The notes under the pieces were generated by a model. The model was given only the letters and a program-made list of their open reading frames with translations. It ran no database searches and had not been told where the DNA came from. Position numbers and translations under genes: made by a program. From assembly GCF_003334405.1 (NCBI RefSeq), contig NZ_QOWM01000002.1: a stretch of DNA of 64,000 nt; one strand, written 5' to 3'. Shown one piece after another: positions 2,262 to 25,105 of the stretch (position 1 is its first letter; each line of letters starts with the position of its first letter). The DNA comes from Escherichia coli. GTDB lineage: Bacteria > Pseudomonadota > Gammaproteobacteria > Enterobacterales > Enterobacteriaceae.

Positions 2262-3443
2262 ATGAAAGACGTTGTGATTGTCGGGGCGTTACGGACACCT
2301 ATCGGCTGCTTTCGTGGTGCGTTAGCGGGTCATTCCGCCGTGGAACTTGGTAGTCTGGTCGTGAAAGCGTTAATAGAACGTACCGGCGTTCCTGCATATG
2401 CGGTGGATGAAGTAATTCTTGGTCAGGTGTTGACTGCAGGGGCAGGGCAGAATCCGGCAAGGCAATCGGCTATTAAAGGTGGTCTGCCTAATAGCGTTTC
2501 TGCAATCACTATTAATGACGTTTGCGGTTCCGGGCTTAAAGCACTGCATCTGGCTACTCAGGCGATACAGTGTGGCGAGGCTGATATTGTCATCGCCGGT
2601 GGCCAGGAAAACATGAGCCGCGCACCACATGTTCTGACTGATAGCCGCACCGGTGCACAGCTTGGCAATAGCCAGTTGGTTGACAGTCTTGTGCATGATG
2701 GGTTGTGGGATGCCTTCAATGATTATCATATTGGTGTCACCGCCGAAAATCTGGCTCGCGAATATGGCATCAGCCGTCAGTTGCAGGATGCTTACGCACT
2801 TAGCTCGCAACAAAAAGCGCGAGCGGCGATTGACGCCGGACGATTTAAAGATGAGATCGTCCCGGTAATGACCCAAAGTAACGGGCAGACGTTGGTTGTT
2901 GATACCGATGAACAGCCACGCACTGACGCCAGCGCAGAAGGCTTAGCCCGTTTAAATCCTTCATTTGATAGTCTCGGTTCTGTGACAGCGGGTAATGCAT
3001 CATCCATAAACGATGGCGCAGCTGCGGTAATGATGATGAGCGAAGCCAAAGCACGAGCGTTGAATTTACCCGTGCTGGCCCGCATTCGCGCATTTGCCAG
3101 CGTTGGTGTAGATCCGGCATTGATGGGAATTGCGCCGGTGTATGCGACCCGCCGTTGCCTGGAGCGTGTAGGCTGGCAGTTGGCTGAAGTCGATCTTATC
3201 GAGGCTAATGAAGCGTTTGCTGCACAGGCGCTTTCGGTTGGCAAGATGCTTGAGTGGGATGAGCGTCGGGTCAATGTCAATGGTGGCGCGATCGCACTCG
3301 GTCACCCGATAGGCGCTTCCGGTTGCCGAATCCTGGTTTCTCTGGTTCATGAAATGGTGAAACGTAATGCCCGCAAAGGACTGGCAACGCTTTGTATCGG
3401 CGGGGGCCAGGGTGTGGCATTGACCATTGAACGTGACGAATAG
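2262..3443 (+). CDS. yqeF: Acetyl-CoA C-acetyltransferase (thiolase family)
   Basis: 393 aa from ATG 2262 (track ORF starts 1 codon earlier at GTG); thiolase motifs NDVCGSGLKA (active Cys) and C-terminal CIGGGQG. Confidence 0.9.
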   Translation: MKDVVIVGALRTPIGCFRGALAGHSAVELGSLVVKALIERTGVPAYAVDEVILGQVLTAGAGQNPARQSAIKGGLPNSVSAITINDVCGSGLKALHLATQAIQCGEADIVIAGGQENMSRAPHVLTDSRTGAQLGNSQLVDSLVHDGLWDAFNDYHIGVTAENLAREYGISRQLQDAYALSSQQKARAAIDAGRFKDEIVPVMTQSNGQTLVVDTDEQPRTDASAEGLARLNPSFDSLGSVTAGNASSINDGAAAVMMMSEAKARALNLPVLARIRAFASVGVDPALMGIAPVYATRRCLERVGWQLAEVDLIEANEAFAAQALSVGKMLEWDERRVNVNGGAIALGHPIGASGCRILVSLVHEMVKRNARKGLATLCIGGGQGVALTIERDE

Positions 3444-3600
3444 CTCTGCATTTCCTCCTTACCGATAAATATCTGCCGTCATTAATCTGTTGAATAATGA
3501 TGGCTGGCAAGTCGACATACATTTTCTGGGCTCCCTCATTTTTCCATTCTCATGACATATTCGTGATCGACACTGCACTTTTTTTAATCCTTAACTTAAA

Positions 3601-3686
3601 AATGAAACATTGTTTTATTTTTAATTGAAAACCCTAGCCCATGGGCATATCATCCCTTTATAGAGAAAACGAAACAGTGTTTCACT
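3601..3686. promoter_or_regulatory. Two KdgR-type operator palindromes upstream of kduI (AATGAAACATTGTTTTATT at 3601-3619; AAACGAAACAGTGTTTCACT at 3667-3686)
   Basis: Near-perfect inverted repeats built on GAAACA..TGTTTC half-sites, 50-130 bp upstream of the kduI start; matches the known KdgR operator type for pectin/hexuronate genes. Confidence 0.55.
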
Positions 3687-3729
3687 ATCGTTTTCTATTT
3701 TCACGCTTTACTGATTATCGGAGGTTGAT

Positions 3730-4566
3730 GTGGACGTAAGACAGAGCATCCACAGTGCGCACGCAAAAACGCTGGATACCCAAGGGCTGCGCAATGAATT
3801 TTTGGTTGAAAAGGTATTTGTCGCCGATGAGTACACCATGGTTTACAGCCACATTGACCGAATTATTGTTGGCGGCATTATGCCGATAACTAAAACGGTT
3901 TCCGTTGGCGGGGAAGTTGGTAAACAACTCGGCGTAAGCTATTTCCTTGAACGTCGCGAGTTAGGTGTTATCAATATTGGCGGTGCCGGTACGATTACTG
4001 TCGATGGCCAATGCTATGAAATCGGTCACCGCGACGCCCTGTATGTTGGTAAAGGTGCAAAAGAAGTTGTCTTTGCCAGTATTGATACCGGCACTCCGGC
4101 GAAGTTTTATTACAATTGCGCACCCGCGCATACGACGTATCCCACCAAAAAAGTCACACCGGACGAAGTATCTCCAGTCACGTTAGGCGATAACCTCACC
4201 AGTAACCGTCGCACGATTAACAAATATTTTGTCCCGGATGTACTGGAAACCTGCCAATTGAGTATGGGGCTGACGGAGCTGGCTCCGGGTAACTTGTGGA
4301 ACACCATGCCGTGTCACACCCACGAGCGCCGGATGGAAGTTTATTTCTATTTCAATATGGATGATGACGCCTGCGTTTTCCACATGATGGGGCAGCCGCA
4401 AGAAACGCGTCATATTGTGATGCATAACGAGCAGGCGGTGATCTCCCCGAGCTGGTCGATCCATTCCGGTGTCGGAACCAAAGCTTATACCTTTATCTGG
4501 GGCATGGTCGGTGAAAACCAGGTCTTTGATGATATGGACCATGTGGCCGTTAAAGATTTGCGCTAG
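3730..4566 (+). CDS. kduI: 4-deoxy-L-threo-5-hexosulose-uronate ketol-isomerase (5-keto-4-deoxyuronate isomerase)
   Basis: 278 aa, GTG start 3730 preceded by GGAGG; full-length match to KduI cupin family. Confidence 0.93.
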
Positions 4567-4595
4567 TTGTGGGCATAAACGAATAAGGTATTGTT

Positions 4596-5357
4596 ATGAT
4601 TTTAAGTGCATTTTCTCTCGAAGGTAAAGTTGCGGTCGTCACTGGTTGTGATACTGGACTGGGTCAGGGGATGGCGTTGGGGCTGGCGCAAGCGGGCTGT
4701 GACATTGTTGGCATTAACATCGTTGAACCGACTGAAACCATCGAGCAGGTCACAGCGCTGGGGCGTCGTTTTTTAAGCCTGACCGCCGATCTGCGAAAGA
4801 TTGATGGTATTCCAGCACTGCTGGATCGCGCGGTAGCGGAGTTTGGTCATATTGATATCCTGGTGAATAACGCCGGATTGATTCGCCGCGAAGATGCTCT
4901 CGAGTTCAGCGAAAAGGACTGGGACGATGTCATGAACCTGAATATCAAGAGCGTATTCTTCATGTCTCAGGCAGCGGCGAAACACTTTATCGCGCAAGGC
5001 AATGGCGGCAAGATTATCAATATCGCGTCAATGCTCTCCTTCCAGGGCGGGATCCGTGTGCCTTCTTATACCGCATCAAAAAGCGGCGTGATGGGTGTGA
5101 CGCGATTGATGGCGAACGAATGGGCTAAACACAACATTAATGTTAATGCGATAGCCCCGGGTTACATGGCGACCAACAATACTCAACAACTACGGGCAGA
5201 TGAACAACGTAGCGCGGAAATTCTCGACCGCATTCCAGCTGGTCGTTGGGGACTGCCGAGTGACCTGATGGGGCCGATAGTGTTCCTTGCCTCCAGCGCT
5301 TCAGATTATGTGAATGGTTATACCATTGCCGTGGATGGCGGTTGGCTGGCGCGTTAA
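4596..5357 (+). CDS. kduD: 2-dehydro-3-deoxy-D-gluconate 5-dehydrogenase (SDR family)
   Basis: 253 aa, Rossmann motif TGCDTGLGQG, SDR catalytic YxxxK (YTASK); 29 bp after kduI, so likely co-transcribed. Confidence 0.93.
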   Translation: MILSAFSLEGKVAVVTGCDTGLGQGMALGLAQAGCDIVGINIVEPTETIEQVTALGRRFLSLTADLRKIDGIPALLDRAVAEFGHIDILVNNAGLIRREDALEFSEKDWDDVMNLNIKSVFFMSQAAAKHFIAQGNGGKIINIASMLSFQGGIRVPSYTASKSGVMGVTRLMANEWAKHNINVNAIAPGYMATNNTQQLRADEQRSAEILDRIPAGRWGLPSDLMGPIVFLASSASDYVNGYTIAVDGGWLAR

Positions 5358-24701: not shown

Positions 24702-25105
24702 ACCGCGAAAAGGGTGTTTCGTCACTGGCTCTGGTCCTGATGCTGCTGGTTTTGGGTAGTTTGCTATTACAAGGAATGAGCCAACAGGATCGCAGTTTTG
24801 CCTCTCGCGTGAGCATGGAAAGTCAGTCATTGCGCCGCCAGGCCATCGTTCAGTCGGCGCTGGCGTGGGGAAAAATGCACTCCTGGCAGACGCAGCCAGC
24901 AGTTCAGTGCTCGCAGTACGCTGAAACCGATGCCCAGGTTTGTTTGCGTTTACTGGCAGATAATGAAGCCTTATTGATTGCCGGTTATGAAGGCGTTTCG
25001 TTGTGGCGAACAGGCGAAGTCATTGATGGAAACATTGTTTTTTCGCCACGCGGCTGGAGCGATTTTTGTCCGCTGAAAGAGAGGGCGTTATGTCAGCTTC
25101 CCTGA
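24698..25105 (+). CDS. ygdB: Pseudopilin-like protein YgdB
   Basis: 135 aa, GTG start overlapping the ppdB stop; hydrophobic N-terminus. Confidence 0.8.

Follow-up and report, generated by a model that had tools for sequence, protein, structure and literature searches.

We propose that two palindromes upstream of kduI in Escherichia coli, here called O1 and O2, are putative operators of the IclR-family repressor KdgR, and that they bracket the sigma-70 promoter of kduI-kduD. We put the probability of this reading at about 0.88. Very probably, both sites are shared with the KdgR paralogue PlaR (YiaJ). The sites, their significance, their position and the selection on their half-sites come from the present analysis; the derepression of the genes, the binding of PlaR in vitro and the induction of the promoter come from the literature.

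Two palindromes on either side of the kduI promoter

The DNA analysed, referred to as the window, is a stretch of 64,000 nucleotides from E. coli. Many complete E. coli chromosomes match the part of the window that contains kduI (3300-4700) with 100% identity, and 5,419 of 5,426 genomes contain it. The RefSeq annotation of an identical strain gives the gene order yqeG (minus strand), yqeF (plus), kduI (plus), kduD (plus), araE, ygeA and lysR (minus). The KduI protein scored 453.7 bits against NCBIfam NF002091 (cut-off 250), and NCBIfam also confirmed an acetyl-CoA acetyltransferase in the window. The features, in window coordinates, are as follows.

3443, plus strand: end of yqeF
3600..3620, plus strand: putative operator O1, AAATGAAACATTGTTTTATTT, a KdgR-type (IclR-family) palindrome of the form TGAAAC-N3-GTTTTA, centre 3610
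3625..3653, plus strand: sigma-70 promoter of kduI-kduD, with -35 hexamer TTGAAA at 3625-3630, a 17-bp spacer and -10 hexamer TATCAT at 3648-3653
3667..3687, plus strand: putative operator O2, AAACGAAACAGTGTTTCACTA, a KdgR-type palindrome of the form CGAAAC-N3-GTTTCA in the 5' untranslated leader, centre 3677
3720-3724, plus strand: Shine-Dalgarno sequence GGAGG of kduI (part 3719..4566)
3730 to 4566, plus strand: coding sequence of kduI (RefSeq), the first regulated gene, from GTG to stop
4596-5357, plus strand: kduD (RefSeq), the second gene; NCBIfam NF006528, 554.8 bits

A first-pass annotation of the window had placed AATGAAACATTGTTTTATT at 3601-3619 and AAACGAAACAGTGTTTCACT at 3667-3686 and had described both as near-perfect inverted repeats. 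These coordinates were exact, and the symmetry is real. The arms of O1, AATGAAACA and TGTTTTATT, are complementary at eight of nine positions around T3610, and a repeat search extended the palindrome to 19-nt arms with 84% complementarity and a 1-nt gap. The core of O2, GAAACA-G-TGTTTC, is a perfect 6+6 palindrome with 0 mismatches (7 of 10 if the flanks are included). O1 and O2 are also direct copies of each other, matching at 88% over 17 nt at a distance of 67 bp.

Both palindromes resemble the 21-nt KdgR consensus AAATGAAACAnTGTTTCATTT, which is attributed to Rodionov et al. 2000/2004 (PMC5559549). O1 differs from it at 1 of 20 positions and O2 at 3 of 20, and both have the half-site geometry TGAAAC-N3-GTTTCA that is expected of a KdgR operator. 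When both strands of the 64 kb were searched with up to three mismatches, O1 and O2 were the only matches, whereas 100 dinucleotide shuffles gave an expectation of 0.00. They remained the only matches with up to five mismatches. Thus, there are no further copies upstream of yqeF or kduD, where the first-pass annotation had suggested looking, and no KdgR-like box lies between or within kduI and kduD at this threshold. The gap between the two genes is 29 bp, and a separate operator would not fit into it. These matches owe their significance to the full length of the boxes and to their conservation; the short 13-nt core by itself occurs at close to the chance rate, with eight occurrences at two mismatches against 3.3 expected, which is not significant. 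One such core-only match, at 25029-25041, lies within a coding region and lacks AT-rich flanks, and we rejected it as a chance occurrence.

The accepted KdgR targets of E. coli K-12 served as a yardstick, scored by counts of consensus mismatches rather than with a position weight matrix. The box upstream of kdgT (AAATAAAACAGCGTTTCAATT) has three mismatches to the same consensus and the box upstream of kdgK (TAATGGAACACTGTTTTAATA) has five, so that O1 and O2 match at least as well as the boxes of these accepted targets. No box with five or fewer mismatches was found within 10 kb around edd-eda of K-12. A 17-nt degenerate consensus, AATRAAAYRNYRTTTYA, reportedly that of Nasser et al. in 1994, fits O1 perfectly and O2 with one mismatch, and we did not count this as evidence. 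In the searchable literature we found neither the exact O1 and O2 strings nor a footprint or mutational test of the two sites with E. coli KdgR.

The position of the two boxes is that of operators in the promoter region of a gene for pectin, hexuronate and 2-keto-3-deoxygluconate (KDG) catabolism, as they bracket the kduI-kduD promoter. A promoter consensus scan of the spacer found one sigma-70-like promoter, which matches at 10 of 12 positions. The same combination, TTGAAA-17-TATCAT, is listed for kduI among the RpoD-holoenzyme gSELEX promoters (PMC3946193), where it is also flagged for H-NS. Transcription is predicted to start at about A3660, a base that is invariant in the orthologues. Relative to this predicted start, O1 covers approximately -60 to -40, with its centre at about -50, and leaves 4 bp between its end and the -35 hexamer. 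O2 covers approximately +8 to +28, with its centre at about +18.

Two other elements of the spacer were observed. An inverted repeat at 3475-3504 (GCCGTCATTAATC / GAATAATGATGGC), 32 bp past the yqeF stop, has 13-nt arms with 85% complementarity and a 4-nt loop; as no T-run follows it, it does not qualify as a canonical terminator. A block cGTGATCg lies at 3562-3578, some 40 bp upstream of O1; its GTGATC is invariant in 80 orthologues, and so is a CA at 3576-3577. This block resembles a weak CRP site (cGTGA-N6-ctgCA) centred at about 3569.5, roughly -90 from the predicted start. As judged by its sequence, such a putative CRP site would fit catabolite control of kduID.

Conservation of the boxes and their gene neighbourhood

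Orthologous promoters were collected through a genome scan with KduI. The best 80 loci listed, all with at least 90% protein identity, came from Escherichia, Citrobacter, Enterobacter, Kluyvera, Kosakonia, Lelliottia, Trabulsiella, Siccibacter, Pluralibacter and other genera. All examined loci but one, L006, carried an O1-like box that lies at -102 to -127 relative to the start codon of kduI, followed 65-69 bp further downstream by an O2-like box; the two boxes were 67 bp apart in 54 of the 80 loci and 68 bp apart in 22. L006, labelled as a deltaproteobacterial MAG, was excluded, since it lacks the boxes because its contig is chimeric and is joined 23 bp upstream of the kduI start. In this entry (positions 1-545) a 99%-identical E. 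coli kduI is joined to unrelated DNA, most likely through chimeric assembly or contamination.

We then compared 80 distinct upstream sequences from Enterobacteriaceae, aligned with MAFFT, with the E. coli base at each position. Identity to E. coli was 99.6% in the half-sites of O1 and 81% in those of O2, compared with 40% at the remaining 113 positions of the spacer. The central 3 nt of the boxes were far less constrained (52% in O1 and 40% in O2). The -35 hexamer was 100% identical, and the -10 hexamer, of the form TAnnAT, had a mean identity of 75%. The GGAGG and GTG of kduI were also conserved among orthologues. O1 and O2 are the two most conserved blocks upstream of kduI across about 79 other Enterobacteriaceae.

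The two boxes are each conserved in their own form. O1 is TGAAAC-N3-GTTTTA nearly everywhere (32 of 33 variants have T at position 17), and O2 is present in most genera, at the same place, as the symmetric variant CGGAAC-N3-GTTTCG. Among the divergent E. coli strains sampled, O1 is invariant, and the differences in O2 are confined to its centre, its flank and the Y of GTTTYA. A free centre between conserved half-sites is characteristic of dimeric helix-turn-helix operators under purifying selection. The first-pass annotation had named two results that would speak against KdgR sites, a mismatch to the consensus and the absence of the palindromes from orthologous kduI promoters, and neither was found.

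The neighbourhood of kduI differs among these genera. In Enterobacter (for instance, Enterobacter quasihormaechei, L043 704-2700) and about 40 other loci, including Kluyvera, Kosakonia and others, ogl is divergent from kduI and kdgM lies beyond it. The former encodes oligogalacturonate lyase (Pfam PF14583, E = 1e-203) and the latter a porin (PF06178). A separate KdgR-like box, at -238 from kduI, belongs to the divergent ogl. The kdgM-ogl-kduI arrangement is a compact KdgR-regulon cluster, and Escherichia has lost kdgM and ogl between yqeF and kduI. As the kdgM-ogl<>kduI-kduD cluster of the related genera is a classic cluster of the KdgR regulon, it counts in favour of KdgR operators at this promoter.

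Other loci, among them those of the Citrobacter freundii group and Trabulsiella, cleanly lack the ogl reading frame, and the box and leader of ogl are fused to its terminator. In blastn comparisons of Citrobacter werkmanii (L023) with the Enterobacter locus L043, L023 2571-2616 corresponds to L043 1468-1514, just 3' of ogl, and L023 2632-2686 to L043 2743-2797, just 5' of ogl. The resulting unit (L023 2567-2662; also found in L020, L021, L044, L050, L066 and L074) carries a third KdgR-like box, TATCAAAACATTGTTTCATTT, at about -350 from kduI between minus-strand promoter hexamers, followed by a minus-strand terminator. It looks like a relic, about 80 nt long, of a cleanly deleted ogl, and it may still be transcribed under KdgR control. 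This relic gave full-length matches to Rfam RF02071 (STnc280) at 30-41 bits, which is below the gathering score of 80. Escherichia has lost the ogl relic as well, and an Rfam search of the E. coli spacer gave chance-level matches only. Separately, in E. coli strain D53-1 (NZ_CM161506.1) an IS1B-family element lies inside the yqeF-kduI-kduD stretch, splitting the match to 3300-4700 in two.

Arrangement of the two sites and their regulators

The first-pass annotation had described the palindromes as a tandem arrangement that implies two repressor dimers. There are indeed two sites, but they are not tandem in the sense used for this family. Tandem sites of IclR-family proteins have 18-22 nt between their centres (PMC8222616), whereas the centres of O1 and O2, at 3610 and 3677, are 67 bp apart and the core promoter lies between them.

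One argument against the KdgR-operator reading is that O1 is centred at about -50, where it would not occlude the core promoter on its own. This placement, poor for repression by O1 alone, could be understood if O1 and O2 formed one unit, with a KdgR tetramer or a pair of KdgR and PlaR dimers looping the 67-bp core promoter for cooperative repression. The two sites do bracket the promoter, and their centres are 67-68 bp apart in 76 of the 80 orthologues. However, the -35/-10 geometry between the sites is fixed and accounts for much of this constancy. A distance of 67 bp is about 6.4 helical turns, which puts O1 and O2 on different faces, and a loop of this size would be very tight. Moreover, the KdgR of Dickeya is reported to be a dimer. 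IclR-family proteins can bind as tetramers, but the tandem spacings they prefer are much shorter than 67 bp (18-22 nt; PMC8222616). A bridged or looped O1-O2 complex is therefore possible but unsupported, and we consider cooperative looping unlikely.

It is doubtful, too, that O1 and O2 are functionally differentiated, either by a division of labour between KdgR and PlaR (or another paralogue) or by an obligatory bridged complex that traps the promoter. This idea is based on the conservation pattern: O1 has kept TGAAAC-N3-GTTTTA, O2 has kept the symmetric CGRAAC-N3-GTTTYG, and the spacing is locked at 67-68 bp. The form of O2 is also a second argument against the KdgR-operator reading, since in most genera it departs regularly from the consensus (CGGAAC...GTTTCG) and might bind KdgR with low affinity.

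The regulator that acts on kduI-kduD had been given as KdgR, and as far as repression by KdgR is concerned this agrees with the consensus matches, with the conservation of the boxes and with published derepression on loss of kdgR (PMC6958661, PMC6892915). A deletion that includes kdgR leads to overexpression of kdgK, kdgT, kduI and kduD (PMC6892915), and Shimada et al. (2019, PMC6958661) report that kduD mRNA increases on Northern blots in both the kdgR and the plaR deletion. Galacturonate or glucuronate raises the activity of the kduI promoter 7- to 54-fold (PMC3578941). What did not stand is KdgR as the sole candidate, since PlaR binds kduI and represses kduD, and its box is essentially identical.

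Indeed, the boxes could mainly be operators of PlaR, with KdgR acting indirectly, for instance because plaR and kdgR are reported to repress each other. According to the same report (PMC6958661), PlaR binds kduI in gSELEX, gel shifts with 12 probes, which may include kduI, confirmed its high-affinity gSELEX targets, and the mRNAs of kdgR and plaR each increase when the other gene is deleted. The report gives the PlaR box as a 21-bp palindrome, ATnTGAAACnnnGTT(T)CAnTT, a motif found in both O1 and O2 and indistinguishable from the KdgR box. The plaR-yiaK spacer carries TGAAATCAAGTTTCG, which has the same 6-3-6 geometry. Although KdgR and PlaR are only 34% identical, their recognition helices are nearly identical (KSTVYRFLQ in KdgR and KSTVHRLLQ in PlaR), and sequence alone cannot assign a box to either paralogue. 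Nevertheless, O1 is an almost perfect copy of a KdgR consensus derived from Dickeya operators, both boxes have been kept in every orthologous genus examined, many of them adjoining ogl and kdgM, and kduI, kdgK and kdgT are all derepressed on deletion of kdgR (PMC6892915). Accordingly, we regard control mainly by PlaR, with KdgR acting only indirectly, as improbable. The two readings are compatible with each other, and the authors of PMC6958661 state that the genes carry a KdgR box and propose co-regulation by KdgR and PlaR.

A further candidate was a different regulator with a TGAAAC motif, such as Cra (FruR), or chance. The half-sites of Cra abut, without a 3-nt centre, and this geometry does not fit O1 and O2. 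The spacer is AT-rich and has an H-NS flag (PMC3946193), and the 13-nt core occurs near chance frequency at two mismatches, but chance palindromes in H-NS-bound DNA or Cra sites are effectively refuted, and to us barely conceivable, given the expectation of 0.00 for full-length matches, the presence of O1 and O2 in orthologues, conservation that is selective for the half-sites, and genetics that tie kduID to KdgR and PlaR.

A model for kduI-kduD repression

Based on these data, we return to KdgR operators that bracket the promoter and propose how they could act. In cells without inducer, one repressor dimer would bind each palindrome. The dimer on O1 would abut the -35 hexamer and occupy the zone of the RNA polymerase alpha C-terminal domains, so that recruitment would be hindered. 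The dimer on O2 could block extension of the open complex or promoter escape. Conversely, when hexuronates or pectin fragments are catabolized, KDG would accumulate and release KdgR, and kduID would be transcribed. KDG is the established inducer of Dickeya KdgR, and we infer that it plays the same part in E. coli.

This model is close to the KdgR regulon of Dickeya dadantii (Erwinia chrysanthemi) and other gamma-proteobacteria (Rodionov et al. 2000, 2004, as cited in PMC5559549 and PMC6958661). The AT-rich 21-nt palindrome is the same, the targets belong to the same class (kduI, kduD, kdgK, kdgT, eda, ogl and kdgM), and the logic is also the same, in that a catabolite of pectin or hexuronates frees the repressor. 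Unlike that regulon, E. coli has lost the pectinolytic part, and ogl and kdgM are gone at the kduI locus. Within E. coli, kdgT and kdgK share the motif and the regulator with kduI, and each of these two genes is derepressed on kdgR loss and is preceded by a single box. In contrast, kduI has two boxes that bracket its promoter, with one and three mismatches compared with three and five at kdgT and kdgK. The PlaR box at plaR-yiaK and other PlaR targets (Shimada et al. 2019, PMC6958661) is also similar, but PlaR differs from KdgR in its effector and in its physiological role (ascorbate and plant-derived sugars).

At the aceBAK promoter, too, a repressor of this family, IclR itself, has two separate operators that lie around or upstream of a single promoter. 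However, the motif there is different (TGGAAATNATTTCCA), and cooperative or tetrameric binding has been documented. An overview of the family is given in PMC8222616.

KdgR control of kduID in E. coli was already known: comparative genomics predicted it in 2000/2004, and experiments supported it in 2019. Our findings on O1 and O2 depart nowhere from the known KdgR system; this is ordinary regulation of sugar-acid genes, and the architecture of the two sites does not in itself raise a new question. In practice, the findings are of modest use, as a source of exact coordinates for annotation and reporter design. These coordinates also help to separate control by KdgR from control by PlaR in the use of hexuronates and pectin fragments in the gut. 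In sum, kduID is confirmed as a member of the E. coli KdgR regulon, with a layout that is conserved throughout the family: one box at about -50 and one at about +18.
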